Assembly: GCA_965249275.1 (NCBI GenBank)
Contig: CBDFLQ010000007.1
Location: 288,001-352,000 of the forward strand
Reading direction: 5' to 3'
Origin: Dehalococcoidia bacterium
Lineage (GTDB): Bacteria; Chloroflexota; Dehalococcoidia; Plut-88900
DNA length: 64,000 nucleotides
Shown here: positions 98 through 36,813 of the stretch, piece after piece
How positions within the stretch are numbered: position 1 is the stretch's first letter
Layout: the number at the start of each line of letters is the position of its first letter
Translations under genes and position numbers: made by a program
The notes under the pieces: generated by a model
Database searches by the model: none
What the model was told of the DNA's origin: nothing
The model's input: only the letters and a program-made list of their open reading frames with translations

Positions 98-293
98 CCT
101 TATTAAAGATATCAGGCTAATATTTTAACAAAAGGCAACTCAGCATTCTATATCAAAGTCTACCTTTAATATGGATCCTGCCCTGCCGCTTTTATTAAAG
201 GATAGGCTTGCCATACTTTAATATGCAACCAGCAAATCTCCCATGTTAAACGCTACCTTTAACATGGCCCATCACCACAGCCCTTATTAAAGG
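98..293. repeat. AT-rich degenerate ~92-bp-period array of inverted half-sites
   Basis: TTATTAAAG at 100, 192, 284; CTACCTTTAAYATGG at 160 and 253; perfect inverted repeat CCATGTTAAA-N7-TTTAACATGG at 241-267. Confidence 0.75.
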
Positions 294-31808: not shown

Positions 31809-33242
31809 ATCACTGGAAGTAAGAAATCCATCAGTGCGCTAGAATCGCCCGTCCGCGCGTTCATCCTCGACCACGGCCTCGCCCACGACCCACGACCTCT
31901 TGTCCTTGGCGTCTCCGGAGGCCCCGACTCCCTATCTCTCCTCCACGCCCTACACCACCTCTCTCCCGAGCTAGGTCTCTCCCTCCACGTCGCCCACTTC
32001 AACCACGGCCTGCGTGCCGATGCCTCTGACGCCGACGCCGATTTCGTTGCCTCTCAAACCGAGAGCCTCGGCCTCCCCTTTTCCACCGCCAAGGAATATG
32101 TAAGGTCCCGTGCCAAGGGGCACAGCCGCTCTCTCGAAGAACAGGCCCGTGATGCGCGCTATGATTTCCTTGCCCGCGTCGCCGCCGAGCAAAATACCTC
32201 CGGTGTCGCTGTCGCCCACACCGCCGACGACCAGGCCGAGACCGTCCTGATGCACCTGATAAGAGGGACCGGCCTCCGTGGTCTTAGGGGTATGTTCCCC
32301 GTCGTGGAAACGCAATCGGTCTCCGGGCTGGACCTGAAGTTATTCCGCCCCTTGTTGTCGGTCTCCCGTCAACAGACCGAGGACTATTGCAGAACCTTGC
32401 CCCTTGAACCTCGTATCGACCACACTAACCTCCTCCCGGAAACGTTGCGAAACCGGATCAGGCTCGAACTACTGCCCATGCTCGGGGAGTACAACCCCAG
32501 GTTCTCCGATGCGCTCCTCCGCCTCGCCGATTCCGCCAACCTGGACCTCTCCTTCATCGAGTCCCGCGTCGCTGCGATATGGCCGGAGGCGGTGGAAGAG
32601 ATGGCCGGAGGACTATCCATATCCCGCAGAAAGCTCTCAGATATACACCCCGCCTTGCGCCGTCGAGTCCTGTCGCAAGCCTTGGAGTCGGTGTCCGGTA
32701 GCCCATTGGACATCGAAGGTGTCCACGTAAAATCGCTGGAGTCCCTGCTGACCGGAGACACTGGCTCCGAGCTTGACCTGCGCAAAGGCGTCCGAGCCTC
32801 CCTGGGCTACGACCACCTCACCCTGACCAAGATCCCCACCCCACCCCCAACCCCCCTCCCCGAAGAAGAGCGGCCTATCACCGTACCCGGCAAAACTCTA
32901 CTGCCTGGCTGGAAGATCACAGCCACCGTTGACGAAGCAACCTCTAGCGAATGGAATGCAGACCCATATTCCTCTCTCTTTGATATGGACAAAGTGTCGG
33001 GGCATATCACCGTGCGTCGCCGCCGAAACGGCGACCACTTCATCCCCATCGGCATGTCTGGCTCCAAAAAGCTCCAGGACTTCCTCACCGATGCCAAAGT
33101 CCCCAGAAATCACCGCGACTCCATACCCATTGTCCTCTCCGACGATAAAATTATCTGGGTTGTCGGCTACCGCCCCTCCAACCACGCCAAGCTCACCCCC
33201 ACCACCCGACACACTCTCCGGCTTGCCTTTGAGCCCGTCTAG
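31809..33242 (+). CDS. tilS: tRNA(Ile)-lysidine synthetase (inferred ATC start)
   Basis: SGGPDS PP-loop, HFNHGLR, ARDARY, AHTADDQAET all lie upstream of the track ATG at 32250; RNRIR and C-terminal TilS domain follow. Confidence 0.93.
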   Translation: MTGSKKSISALESPVRAFILDHGLAHDPRPLVLGVSGGPDSLSLLHALHHLSPELGLSLHVAHFNHGLRADASDADADFVASQTESLGLPFSTAKEYVRSRAKGHSRSLEEQARDARYDFLARVAAEQNTSGVAVAHTADDQAETVLMHLIRGTGLRGLRGMFPVVETQSVSGLDLKLFRPLLSVSRQQTEDYCRTLPLEPRIDHTNLLPETLRNRIRLELLPMLGEYNPRFSDALLRLADSANLDLSFIESRVAAIWPEAVEEMAGGLSISRRKLSDIHPALRRRVLSQALESVSGSPLDIEGVHVKSLESLLTGDTGSELDLRKGVRASLGYDHLTLTKIPTPPPTPLPEEERPITVPGKTLLPGWKITATVDEATSSEWNADPYSSLFDMDKVSGHITVRRRRNGDHFIPIGMSGSKKLQDFLTDAKVPRNHRDSIPIVLSDDKIIWVVGYRPSNHAKLTPTTRHTLRLAFEPV

Positions 33243-33262
33243 GAAGTGTGGATTAGACACTT

Positions 33263-33508
33263 CTTATTTGCGTTATTAGCCCATTACGATAATAAGCATT
33301 TATATAATTTTCATTCCCGAAAATAAAGGAGCGTACTGGTGCCCTAGGGTTTCGCCCAACGAGGCCACCGGAGCATCCCTGGCTTTTTTCTCACGGGTAA
33401 GGGGGTTATTTACAGAACGTACTCATCTGCATACATAGTTGTCTTATTTTCATTTAAATAGCATAATGCTAATAACGTGTCTCTAAATTAGCGGCGTTGA
33501 AAGTAAGG
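33263..33508. repeat. two 66-bp degenerate units upstream of fic (33263-33328, 33443-33508)
   Basis: CTTATT-N19-GMTAATAAS-N10-RTTWKS-N6-GAAARTA with identical spacing. Confidence 0.85.
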
Positions 33509-33514
33509 AATCCT

Positions 33515-34675
33515 GTGACTCTAGTGTCTATAGGTAATCGTCAACCCAGCGGTCGCATGGTGAGGTGCATCGGCGGTTATCAGGCTTATGTGCCGGATCC
33601 TCTCCCACCTCCCATAGTATGGAATCAGAGACTCACCGTCGCGCTCTCATCCGCCGACCGTGCTATCGGCAAGCTTGCGGGTGAAGGACGGCGCTTGCTC
33701 AATCCTCATCTCTTGCTGCGGCCATTTGTCCGTAAGGAGGCTGTTCTCTCCAGCCGCATCGAGGGGACCCAGGCTACCCTCGGCGAGCTCTTGATTAAGG
33801 AGGCTGGTGCCACCGTGTATCGGACTCACTCCGATCTCAATGAGGTGGGCAACTACGTCGCTGCGCTCGAATACGGCCTGAATCGCCTCGAAACATTGCC
33901 CTTGTCCTTGCGCTTGGTTTGCGAAATGCACGAACGGCTCATGCGAGGGGTTCGGGGCGACATGGCCATGCCCGGCGAGTTCCGACGTAGCCAAAACTGG
34001 ATTGGTCCGCCCGGTTCTAATCTGAGCAACGCCACTTATGTTCCGCCGCCCGTTCCCGAACTCATGCCTTGCCTGGACTCTTGGGAGCGGTTCCTGCATG
34101 ACGAGGCCCTTCCGCCTCTGCTCCATGTCGCCCTCGCCCACTCTCAATTCGAGGCTATTCACCCTTTTATCGATGGCAATGGCCGGATAGGGCGGCTGCT
34201 TATCACGCTTTTGCTGGTATCGAGAGAGATTCTTCCATCTCCCCTTTTATACCTGAGCGCCTATTTCGAGGCGACCCGACAAGAGTATTATGCGCGACTC
34301 CAGGCGGTAACGGAAAAGGGGGAATGGGAGGAGTGGCTGGTCTATTTCCTCAGGGGCGTAGTCATCCAGTCAGAGGATGCTTTGGACCGGGTAAGGCGCA
34401 TCGACGAGTTGTTCGCTGGCTGGAAAAGGCTGCTTGCCGACGGAAGATCAAGGCTCCCCGAATCTGCACTCGAACTCTTCATCGAAAACCCCTTCTGGAC
34501 TATACAGAGGGTAGCCGAGAGGCTGAACGTTGCATTCACAACTGCCCAGCGCGCCATCGACAGGCTGGAGTCCGTAGGAATCGTCGCTCAGGTCGGAGAA
34601 GCGAGACGAAACAGGGTCTATTGTGCAGAGTCGGTCCTCAACGTTTTGGAGGAACCAACACCCCTCCCTACCTAG
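33515..34675 (+). CDS. Fic family protein (class II) with C-terminal winged HTH
   Basis: SSRIEG inhibitory motif, HPFIDGNGRIGR Fic motif, TIQRVAERLNVAFTTAQRAIDRL HTH; GTG 33515 behind TAAGGA. Confidence 0.93.
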   Translation: MTLVSIGNRQPSGRMVRCIGGYQAYVPDPLPPPIVWNQRLTVALSSADRAIGKLAGEGRRLLNPHLLLRPFVRKEAVLSSRIEGTQATLGELLIKEAGATVYRTHSDLNEVGNYVAALEYGLNRLETLPLSLRLVCEMHERLMRGVRGDMAMPGEFRRSQNWIGPPGSNLSNATYVPPPVPELMPCLDSWERFLHDEALPPLLHVALAHSQFEAIHPFIDGNGRIGRLLITLLLVSREILPSPLLYLSAYFEATRQEYYARLQAVTEKGEWEEWLVYFLRGVVIQSEDALDRVRRIDELFAGWKRLLADGRSRLPESALELFIENPFWTIQRVAERLNVAFTTAQRAIDRLESVGIVAQVGEARRNRVYCAESVLNVLEEPTPLPT

Positions 34676-34686
34676 CCCCGACCACA

Positions 34687-34906
34687 CTTATTAGCTCAAT
34701 GTAGCCTTTATGCTAATAAGCATGCACGTAGTTTTGGTTTCGGAAAATATGGGGCGTTCCAACACTCAGGGCTTCAGCCAGTAGGCCGAGCCCACCCTAC
34801 GACACCCTCTCCCCACCTAGCATCGGCAGCCAATACACCCCTTATTTGCACAATATGGCCTGAACGCTAATAACTATGTGGGCAATTTTCAAACCCGAAA
34901 ATAAGT
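34687..34906. repeat. two further 66-bp units downstream of fic (34687-34752, 34841-34906)
   Basis: same consensus and spacing as the upstream units, direct orientation. Confidence 0.85.
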
Positions 34907-34957
34907 GCCCGCCTGCCGATGTAGAGCTTTTCTCCTAGCCTCTATTTTCATCCGTGT

Positions 34958-35701
34958 CTAGGCTAGAGCGGCTTCCACGAATTCCTTGTGTTTCTGGTAG
35001 CAGTACCGGCACACTGGTTTTGCCCGGCTAGTTTTCCAGCTCTTAGCGCACAGATGACAGTGTTTTTCTTCAAATTTATCGTTTTTGTATTTGTCCCAGC
35101 TTTTTAAGTGAGTCTCGCAGTAAGGTATCCCCGGGTTTGCTTTCAGCGGTCTTTTGCAGCGAAGACAGTAGCCCTCACTAGGCGAACCTGTGCTCAATTG
35201 GATTCCTTTAGTGCTTTGGCTGAATGCTAAATAGCCTGTGGAAGTTTCCTTGACTTTTTTGCTCTTCTTAGGGGCTTCCACCACCTCACTGATACGCTCT
35301 ATGTCTCTGGCTTCTTTGAGTATTTCTTCGTAGAGCTTCGGGTCATTCTCAAGAGAGACGCGAATTCCCATCTCTCGATTGTTCTCTTGAGAATACTCAT
35401 ATAAATTCATTGAAGTCAGGATTGCCTCTTTCTCGTTGAGGTAGCACTTGGCGTGTAGATTCTTGCAAAACTTTGTTTCAATCCATTCTATGGACTTCAG
35501 CCAGCTATCTTCTTCAGACTGCAGTTTCTTCTTTCCGTAAACAACAGTTACGCTTGTCAGGTGCCCCGTACCTTCAATACGCTTCTTAATGTCATCGTCA
35601 AATTTAAGGTAGGGACTAATGAGCAGAATACACTGCTCAGCGTTCCTGATGATGCTCTCTATCCCTGCTGTTGTGCTTTTCCGAGTCAGAAACTCCGCCA
35701 T
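34958..35701 (-). CDS. PLD-superfamily nuclease-like protein with Cys-rich C-terminus
   Basis: ISPY, LHAKCY...TSMNL...NREMG single HKD-type domain; CLRC, YCETH, CHLC, CRYC. Confidence 0.8.
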   Translation of the reverse strand: MAEFLTRKSTTAGIESIIRNAEQCILLISPYLKFDDDIKKRIEGTGHLTSVTVVYGKKKLQSEEDSWLKSIEWIETKFCKNLHAKCYLNEKEAILTSMNLYEYSQENNREMGIRVSLENDPKLYEEILKEARDIERISEVVEAPKKSKKVKETSTGYLAFSQSTKGIQLSTGSPSEGYCLRCKRPLKANPGIPYCETHLKSWDKYKNDKFEEKHCHLCAKSWKTSRAKPVCRYCYQKHKEFVEAALA

Positions 35702-35772
35702 TGCGCGCTTACTCCCCAGCCATAATACGAAACTTAGGCCGAATTGACGTATTTACTCACCACCCCACCCTC

Positions 35773-36813
35773 CTACAACACCCTCTTCAACTTCGGATTC
35801 TCAGTCAACCCCGGGATCCGACCCCGCTTCGCAATGGCTTTCCCGTCCACCTCATGAATATCTGCGGTGAAGTTGATGGGCCCGGCATTGCTGATATGTC
35901 CCCCCACCCCGAAGCTGTCCACCGGCGCATCATTCTCCCTGAAGTAGCGAATGCGCTCCGGGTCCAACCCCCCGCTCACGATCAGCCGTACCGAGTTGAA
36001 TCCTTCCAGGTCCAGCCGAGCCCGTATCTCCTTGACCAACTCCGCCGTCACCCTGCCCCGTTCCCACGGCGTATCCACCCTAACCCCGGCCAATCTCTCC
36101 CGCATCGCTCGGGCCACGCGCAGACTCTCCTCCGCTTCATCCTTGAAGGTGTCTACCAGCACTATTCTTGGCACTTCCGGACCCTGGCTCCGGTCGAAGG
36201 CTTCTGCCGCTTCCAATGTGTCTCCCATCACCAGGATCAGTGCATGGGGCATGGTCCCCGTAGGCGCGACTCCCGCCAGCGCCGCGCCGTCTATCGAGGC
36301 GCACCCCTGGCACCCGGCCAGCACCGCCGAGTACTCCATCCTTCCCGAGACCAGCGGGTGTACGTGCCTCGCCCCGAAGCTCACAACAGGAATACCCCCA
36401 GCCGCCTCCACACACTCCCGGGCCGCAGTAGCCCACCCTGTGCAGTGCGACAAAATCCCCAGCAGCGGCGTCTCGTACAGGCCGAAGGGTCTGTAGGGCG
36501 CCCGCACCCTCATCACCACCTCTTTTCGCTCTATCTCCGACCCCTCTTCGATGGCCTCCACTTCCCTGTCTTCGGGAGGCACCACTTCCTCAATCAGCTG
36601 AAGCGCTTCGTCTATGCCGCTCAGAATTCCAGGCTTACTGGGGAAAAACTCCACGGTGCATATCGGGTTCAGGCCCTCGGCTTCAAGAACTTGCTGAGCG
36701 CGCCGGAAGTAGATGTCCGTCGTCTCTCCGGACAAGACCCAGTCCGGAAGGGGAAATTTCGGGCGAGTCGCTGAGCCTAAGGAAGGTGGTAGATCATCTT
36801 GGGTAATAGCCAT
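35773..36813 (-). CDS. pncB: nicotinate phosphoribosyltransferase (short type)
   Basis: TDIYF, SFGARH, GTMPHA, LVDTF, VRVDT, SGGLD, FGVG. Confidence 0.9.
   Translation of the reverse strand: MAITQDDLPPSLGSATRPKFPLPDWVLSGETTDIYFRRAQQVLEAEGLNPICTVEFFPSKPGILSGIDEALQLIEEVVPPEDREVEAIEEGSEIERKEVVMRVRAPYRPFGLYETPLLGILSHCTGWATAARECVEAAGGIPVVSFGARHVHPLVSGRMEYSAVLAGCQGCASIDGAALAGVAPTGTMPHALILVMGDTLEAAEAFDRSQGPEVPRIVLVDTFKDEAEESLRVARAMRERLAGVRVDTPWERGRVTAELVKEIRARLDLEGFNSVRLIVSGGLDPERIRYFRENDAPVDSFGVGGHISNAGPINFTADIHEVDGKAIAKRGRIPGLTENPKLKRVL

Follow-up and report, generated by a model that had tools for sequence, protein, structure and literature searches.

Four composite DNA sites around a Dehalococcoidia fic gene as candidate operators of the Fic protein encoded between them

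Introduction

Why should a gene have copies of one elaborate DNA site on both sides of it, two before its start and two beyond its stop? The question is raised by a stretch of 64,000 nucleotides from a Dehalococcoidia bacterium (Chloroflexota; NCBI GenBank assembly GCA_965249275.1, contig CBDFLQ010000007.1, positions 288,001 to 352,000), here called the window. Within it a fic gene, whose product is a Fic protein ending in a winged helix-turn-helix (wHTH), lies between tilS and pncB and is surrounded by four such sites, here called units. The original prediction, drawn from this DNA alone, offered two answers. The units might be a self-binding or looping array for the Fic-wHTH protein, or they might be recombination sites, like those of resolvases, that make fic a mobile cassette.

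I propose that the Fic-wHTH protein whose gene lies between the units uses them as its operators, a reading that comparison of sequences makes likely. It agrees with the first of the two answers, that of a self-binding array, which is well supported at the level of sequence by the linkage of units to the upstream flanks of fic genes, by a scan that began from the DNA side, by the recognition helix of the protein, and by the array that belongs to a paralog in the same genome.

Four units and their half-sites

The four units lie in the same orientation and align with one another without gaps (Table 1). Chance can be excluded without circularity, because two results do not depend on the units that they identify. 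A matrix built from any three units places the one left out fourth among the 5,798,578 positions of the genome, behind the training three, in all four rotations. Training on homologs from other genera alone gives a model that picks out these four places in the 2.9-Mb genome, and no others, at 8 bits or more. The claim of four gapless direct units is therefore borne out by the alignment and by both kinds of model. The matrix scan suggested with the original prediction returns the four units only, and there is no sign of a regulon elsewhere in this genome; units are also carried by the flanks of homologs.

Each unit had been described as two inverted pairs at fixed spacing. The first pair stands up well (7, 6, 9 and 7 of 9 positions match in units 1 to 4, unit 3 being perfect). 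The second matches at 6, 3, 4 and 6 of 6 positions, and is weak in unit 2. The unit is better read as four half-sites of 10 bp, alternately forward and reverse, at offsets 0, 24, 41 and 55. Half-sites of like orientation are separated by 31 or 41 bp, about whole helical turns. The outer TATT of the half-site is common across the family, and the inner 4 bp vary. The exact spacing that had been claimed is found here and is not always kept in relatives: of 8 downstream units, 4 have a fourth half-site with a negative score at the standard offset.

Spacers had also been said to diverge while keeping their length. Their length is indeed fixed in the four units; the free divergence is not upheld. 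Units 3 and 4 fall within one duplicated block, which includes the last ~20 nt of fic, and their spacers are therefore related. Over 25 spacer bases the downstream units share a mean of 15.6, versus 6.9 for unrelated units.

Table 1. Features of the fic locus, in window coordinates except for the second Fic_N gene
Feature	Position	Strand	Remarks
tilS, C-terminal part (left flank)	32250..33242	+	Pfam TilS_C and PP-loop; NCBIfam TIGR02433; stop 20 nt before unit 1
Unit 1 (upstream, distal)	33263..33328	+	Half-sites 33263-72 forward, 33287-96 reverse, 33304-13 forward, 33318-27 reverse
Candidate sigma-70-like promoter, TTGTCT-17-CATAAT	33439..33467	+	9/12 bases
Unit 2 (predicted promoter-proximal operator)	33443..33508	+	Half-sites 33443-52, 33467-76, 33484-93, 33498-507
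fic	33515..34675	+	Fic_N, Fic and C-terminal winged HTH; SoFic-like class II
Inhibitory motif SSRIEG	33749..33766	+	Fits (S/T)xxxE(G/N)
Fic catalytic motif HPFIDGNGRIGR	34160..34195	+	Intact, by sequence reading
wHTH recognition helix (AFTTAQR...)	34532..34573	+	Helix 338-350 in model
Duplicated block holding units 3 and 4	about 34658-34749 and 34802-34903
Unit 3 (downstream copy 1)	34687..34752	+	11 nt past fic stop; first pair a perfect inverted repeat
Unit 4 (downstream copy 2)	34841..34906	+	154 nt after unit 3; 51 nt from stop of convergent PLD-like gene
PLD-like nuclease-fold gene, Cys/His-rich C-terminal tail	34958..35701	-	Pfam PLDc_2 below cut-off; weak similarity to DISARM DrmC
pncB-type nicotinate phosphoribosyltransferase (right flank)	35773..36813	-	NCBIfam NF006415 above cut-off
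Second Fic_N gene	G000:C7:286872-288292	-	Mostly just before the window; array at window 108-292

Association of units with fic genes

The arrangement of half-sites is found ahead of fic in many phyla. In a set of 80 homolog loci, of which 79 could be used, a 9-mer is repeated directly at a distance of 41 bp in 36 of 78 upstream regions, in none of 75 downstream regions and in 1 of 66 distant controls. Another set, of 30 loci from the same phylum, shows offsets of 31, 40 and 41 in 7, 8 and 10 loci. Shuffled controls, named with the original prediction as a check, do not reproduce the geometry: it surpasses every shuffle in 53 of the 79 upstream regions, and in 58 of 79 by a second analysis.

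The association may be approached from the other side. A scan that began with the four-half-site pattern gave at least 123 matches. Among the 123 matches listed, 93 (81 distinct) directly precede a Fic-wHTH gene and only one directly follows such a gene. The remainder consists of 4 beside remnants or other Fic genes, 16 with short flanks, and 9 with long flanks but no fic, small fic remnants being present in 2 of these 9. All 44 complete proteins behind the pattern matches listed have a helix of the form [AS][FY][TS]T.

Several homologs have more than one unit upstream, from two to four. Locus L057 (2641-2953) has four with a period of 82 bp, L090 (2632-2949) has three at 126 bp, and L091 has two mirrored double units. 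Loci whose helix is of the THRS or TPRA type (L109, L123, L125, L128 and L131) possess clear upstream palindromes that lie outside the 24/41 geometry and are perhaps a further spacing class.

Intact operators also stand before fic remnants with internal deletions (L179, L248, L249, L166 and L173), which suggests, from the sequences, that fic is often lost while the predicted operator stays. In other cellular or unclassified contigs, intact operators have neither fic nor a remnant nearby (L155, L185, L168, L176, L181, L584 and L586). The operator in L176 stands before a gene resembling an HTH-nucleotidyltransferase.

The recognition helix and the sequence of the half-site

Of 363 seven-residue windows of the protein, ranked after allowing for identity of the Fic domain, the one that best predicts the inner four bases is AFTTAQR (partial r 0.58, n=57), within what I take to be the recognition helix. 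Of 10 helices that contain [YF]P, 9 go together with A[AT]A[GC], and these come from separate branches and not from one clade, the grouping having been chosen after the data were seen.

The genome contains a contrast of its own. Its second Fic_N gene has the helix VSYPSAN and, upstream, nine half-sites of the form TRTTAAAG, with none close downstream. Half-sites repeat in this array at 41, 52 and 41 bp (41-42 or 50-52), and the gaps between pairs are about one helical turn longer than in the units around the first fic. The second gene and its array are present also in congener G005. The arrays of the two paralogs differ, and each is like the arrays found with homologs that have a similar helix. 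By these comparisons the sequence of the half-site appears to follow the recognition helix of the Fic protein encoded beside it. Covariation of the half-site with the helix, which the original prediction had put forward as a test, is evident in the ranking of protein windows and falls short of significance in independent pairs, to which I return below.

The Fic protein and its promoter

The start of fic is uncertain. It may be GTG at 33515 or 33524, the longest open reading frame (ORF) begins with TTG at 33497, and there is an ATG at 33557. Pfam recognizes Fic_N and Fic above the cut-off and HTH_11 weakly. The PADLOC profile for SoFic (PDLC03963) gives 388 bits over residues 7-365, a full-length match, and the strict NCBIfam SoFic equivalog NF046030 fails (161.9 versus a cut-off of 550). 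An AlphaFold2 model (pLDDT 90) has a long N-terminal helix at 35-57 and, near the C-terminus, helices at 311-321, 327-334 and 338-350 followed by the strands of a wing. The last of these helices, opened by AFTTAQR, would be the recognition helix if the usual layout of a wHTH applies. The best match found by Foldseek is SoFic itself (3zcn, TM 0.82) over the full length. The presence of a C-terminal wHTH, part of the original prediction, is confirmed by Pfam, by the model and by Foldseek. The catalytic and inhibitory motifs listed in Table 1 are identified by what I take to be their accepted definitions. The closest named relatives of this Fic outside its genus come from Dehalococcoidia assemblies.

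Unit 2 lies ~100 nt upstream of the aligned start, and homologs of many phyla have a unit in the equivalent place. The -35 box of a candidate promoter overlaps the first half-site of the unit, the -10 box lies within its long spacer, and its last half-site overlaps AAGGA (33505-09), which resembles a Shine-Dalgarno sequence. The promoter match is weak if taken alone, since a scan gave 2 sites versus 2.2 in shuffled sequence, the level of chance. The -35 hexamer is kept in congeners G002, G005 and G003, and a -10-like hexamer occupies the equal place in 4 of 4 congeners that carry fic. A hairpin resembling a terminator at 33240-33266 looks broken in G002 and G005. A scan of units 3 and 4 found no antisense promoter or terminator.

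The tilS-pncB junction and the question of recombination

Eight congeners can be compared at this locus. In four of them fic lies at the tilS-pncB junction, accompanied by three or four units, and the other four have neither fic nor a unit there. Counting this genome, fic is the constant cargo of 5 out of 5 unit-bearing species. A search for the pattern throughout the class gave matches in 4 of 301 genomes, all at the tilS-pncB junction. The outer units lie ~20 nt past the stop of tilS in four species, and at the other side ~50-75 nt from the point where the convergent PLD gene, or what remains of it, ends.

Does this placement mean that the units are sites of recombination? The second answer in the original prediction holds that they are res-like or att-like sites and that a recombinase acting in trans makes fic a mobile cassette. 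The geometry invites the comparison. In Tn3, res sites II and III have spacers that differ by 9 bp, according to the portion of the source available (PMC9943657), and the units recall Tn3/gamma-delta res in having inverted half-site pairs (here 34 and 24 bp) with spacers unequal by about one helical turn, 10 bp in this case. Each end of the inserted segment is marked by an outer unit, single orphan units exist, and in congener G003 a displaced fragment of the 3' end of pncB lies beside the first unit.

The resemblance ends with geometry. There is no crossover site I, in that no third inverted repeat is shared by the four units from -90 to +110, only the 34-bp pair. No resolvase is at hand: this genome, 87% complete, has no match to PF00239, serine recombinases are present among congeners whether these have fic or lack it, and the nearest tyrosine recombinase is ~264 kb away. 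Among 15 unit-bearing phage records there is no resolvase, and the three that have an integrase have it 12-19 kb from the unit. The sequence of the units appears to follow the helix of the cargo protein. Finally, empty junctions that retain a unit, as a departed cassette might leave, are absent in 4 of 4 congeners without fic. In contigs of four runs no joint between upstream and downstream units, nor any deletion joint, was found among the 15 of 20 joints listed, contigs being of a nature to hide rare excision; they do show relatives with a single downstream unit. The mobile cassette is not borne out, and I give it very little chance. A cassette array with changing cargo, like those of integrons or pdif sites, was rejected as well, since fic is constant in 5/5 and 0/4 junctions without fic keep a unit.

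Congener G006 has 38 matches to serine recombinases, mostly in long frames and several of them paired ~2.6 kb apart, and this genome has none.

The gap between tilS and pncB (window 33243-35772, together with loci L042-L049) is a small hotspot of the defence type, at which, besides fic, divergent PLD-like genes and a phd-vapC-like pair or what is left of it have been gained and lost. The PLD-like gene is present in congeners without fic too. Between species its identity is 35-67%, compared with 87-98% for the pncB genes of the same species. The displaced 3' end of pncB in G003 (L044, oriented 1465-1615) lies between tilS and the first unit and is 85% identical to the intact gene. Its sequence would agree with an integration event that was homologous at one end and illegitimate at the other.

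The downstream copies

The downstream copies call for a separate explanation. One that requires no function is that the promoter and gene were duplicated in tandem, the second gene was then deleted, and units 3 and 4 are leftovers. Both units do belong to the duplication that takes in the end of fic. The first upstream unit of G003 has a spacer of the downstream type (15.2/25) and a left flank of that type. Outside the genus, downstream units are known only from L231, 27 nt after the stop, and from L088, 11 nt after the stop and near the end of the contig, where the downstream pair is 32/34 identical to the upstream pair. The operators that precede deleted fic remnants suggest that a unit may outlast its gene.

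Several observations speak against this explanation. All five species with fic retain at least one downstream unit, and within these units 14 of 32 columns vary in the half-sites versus 21 of 25 in the spacers. No more than 0.0018 of simulations of neutral decay attain the observed score, even if only two independent copies are counted. In G001 a phd-vapC-like pair has come to separate fic from the downstream unit, and the unit remains beside the remnant of the PLD gene. By these sequence comparisons the downstream copies in this genus are kept by selection, and I consider it unlikely that they are functionless. If the units are operators at all, then units 1, 3 and 4 probably arose by local duplication in an ancestor of the five species and were kept as auxiliary sites for the binding of Fic.

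Observations against the operator reading

Several observations weigh against the proposal, in whole or in part. Units without any fic exist, in metagenome contigs, in genomes of the same phylum, and in phages. The distances between upstream units (180, 194 and 382 nt) are not conserved in phase, and short-range looping is therefore not favoured. Neither is the phase of the -10 box fixed: 5 of 58 homologs have it at the position seen in this window, and larger peaks of -10 position across homologs coincide with half-sites.

The link between helix and DNA is confounded with kinship. The test by independent pairs had at first one pair, and later stood at 3 to 0 (p=0.25). Dropped before these tests were L135 (a partial gene), L097 (no helix), L094 (out of register) and loci without a significant call, and before the 3-to-0 test most of the large AFTT clade as well. 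When applied to new loci, prediction from the nearest helix got 31 of 52 bases right, versus 22 from the nearest Fic domain and 19 at random.

A downstream copy is not general to the family: none follows 34 genes in one count and 35 in another that have at least 300 nt of flank. Judged from these sequences, bracketing by downstream units is a feature of this lineage and not of the Fic-wHTH family, and it is in that narrower form that the claim of a bracketed fic stands. The tests for selection given above overstate their case, because the eight downstream units are kin.

Candidate operators in phages

The pattern is found in viral sequences, in two specificity classes of about 9 and 20 clusters (L296-L311, L468-L580, L629, L638 and L639). 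The first class was sought with a pattern of three half-sites, which matches 16 viral loci, versus one for the reversed pattern. These form 10 clusters, none with fic in flanks of up to 2 kb. The number of clusters is not distinctive, since other pairs of gaps reach 10 and 9, and so the support comes from bases that lie outside the pattern. They score 2.9, versus 2.5 in units linked to fic and -3.3 in 75 control clusters (p=3e-6). Nine of the 10 clusters score high, and one class 1 site is inside a polymerase ORF. Five records belong to one phage family, and the class therefore represents about five lineages.

The second class is larger. Its pattern occurs at 113 viral loci, 74 of which, in 22 clusters, have the exact gap, versus 0-9 clusters at other gaps. 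The half-sites are nearly uniform, and 21 of the 22 clusters lie outside long ORFs. Just one cluster (L526) has fic, five of the clusters having only ~300 nt of flank. The same pattern matches six times in 251 genomes of the same phylum, three times directly before a fic with a YP or FP helix and three times without fic.

Searches of 17 entire virus records found no Fic. Thirteen phage records, read whole or nearly so, have one strict 34-bp pair each. The phage units are mostly intergenic, several being just ahead of genes for DUF6496, DUF6378, a RuvC-like protein, a portal or other proteins that look structural. A cluster of 35 related viral contigs has an array of seven half-sites with a strict period of 41 bp (L497:1500-1633) and no fic in the flank. 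Phages in GenBank that do have a related Fic amount to 13 records, with 28-31% identity among the matches listed.

Two explanations for the phage units were tried and rejected, and a third is not supported. They are not attP, as there is no adjacent integrase or resolvase (3/15 at 12-19 kb and 0/15). The unit is not a core element of one phage family: it is present in 4 of 48 loci selected by terminase, those four being the query and one other sequence, and many of the 48 having short flanks. Nothing favours the phage units as decoys better than the native sites, for ten cluster representatives, chosen by the pattern, score ~37 bits versus 39.5 for 78 units linked to fic (p=0.04). As far as sequence goes, the phage operators without fic suggest decoys of some sort or phage genes under control of Fic.

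Units without fic might instead mean that the true binder is some other winged-helix protein, of host or phage, with similar specificity, and that fic is only one of its targets. Besides the phages and half of the six same-phylum class 2 matches, there are 5 metagenome contigs, among the matches listed, with a unit, long flanks and no remnant of fic. Against this, the only four sites in this genome are all around fic, and its two paralogs have unlike arrays that match those of homologs with a similar helix. Nor do the 13 phage records contain a cognate wHTH or an HTH family shared across lineages (best E 0.055). I regard the idea as very improbable and continue with Fic itself as the binder.

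Comparison with known systems

The proposal has precedents, described here as far as the accessible portions of the cited papers go. CccR of Yersinia pseudotuberculosis has the same order of domains as the present Fic. PDB chain 7xux, whose length and release date suggest that it is CccR, superposes on the Fic model at TM 0.57. The CccR dimer, with DNA-binding helices ~70 A apart, acts as repressor of its own promoter by way of a palindrome with widely separated arms that lies near the -35 and -10 boxes (PMC9755527). CccR protects one footprint of 46 nt that contains two boxes of 10 bp, 26 bp apart, whereas here each unit has four phased half-sites and there are four units, two being downstream of the gene. 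Set in the present register, the boxes of CccR would be an outward-facing pair at offset 36, following 17 for this gene and 26-27 for the paralog.

SoFic of Shewanella oneidensis is nearer in structure and in PADLOC profile. Its dimer binds the stretch of 100 bp before its own start in a sequence-specific manner (10.64898/2026.07.09.737422), and SoFic is an anti-phage system (10.1101/2022.05.11.491447, PMC12249575). In the main text of the first of these preprints, the terms 'palindrom', 'inverted repeat' and 'operator' do not occur. The present protein differs in being ~26% identical, below the NCBIfam equivalog cut-off for SoFic, and in that no small ORF, AS1-like or of an antitoxin type, is shared downstream of fic among the five species.

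CbFic2 of Coxiella burnetii has the same architecture and is a precedent for DNA that acts on the enzyme, besides any effect on transcription: binding of its HTH to DNA, random DNA in the experiments described, drives dimerisation and alters catalysis, and the dimer is the form that removes AMP (PMC10628234). SoFic and the Sofic of E. coli, in the sources available, need the dimer for activity, which for SoFic is AMPylation.

From these accounts, self-repression in this class of protein (CccR) and binding to the promoter of its own gene (CccR and SoFic) are already known. The original prediction knew of no description of the arrangement found here. In open-licence PMC and bioRxiv I likewise found none of the four-half-site geometry, the helix code, the downstream copies or the phage-borne operators.

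How the units might work

By analogy with CccR and SoFic, dimers of Fic with widely spaced wHTH domains would occupy half-sites on one face of the DNA. Several dimers over unit 2 would cover the promoter and repress fic, and repression would keep a toxic and probably anti-phage AMP-transferase at a low level. The auxiliary units may be a sink for the protein or a looping partner that tightens control, or they may be roadblocks to transcription that arrives from tilS on one side and from the convergent pncB-PLD operon on the other.

A more adventurous idea, which I hold only tentatively, is that operator DNA is an antidote to enzymes of the SoFic type and that matched copies in phages are a counter-defence made of non-coding DNA. 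Binding would hold the enzyme inactive or sequestered, and the extra chromosomal copies around fic would be in effect a DNA antitoxin. A phage with a captured operator that matches the recognition helix of the host enzyme would neutralise the defence as phage genomes multiply. The idea has a mirror version, in which the host Fic is derepressed by titration or itself switches an adjacent phage gene, to the benefit of the phage. Operator-only clusters far outnumber those with fic, and therefore something more than simple decay of a cargo gene is called for, which lends support to one or the other version.

Implications for Fic-wHTH proteins

Genes for SoFic-like Fic-wHTH proteins are common, and in the literature searched only one operator, that of CccR, was found mapped. 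The comparisons made here would give the family an operator geometry and a code that relates helix to DNA, and the two paralogs of this genome provide a natural contrast within one cell. The operator pattern may also be used as a marker for remnants of fic and for orphan sites. The operators that phages carry without the gene point to a possible direct interaction between phage and defence through non-coding DNA. Whether the enzyme is on or off when it is bound to its operator would decide if the phage copies disarm the host enzyme, provoke it, or merely sense it.

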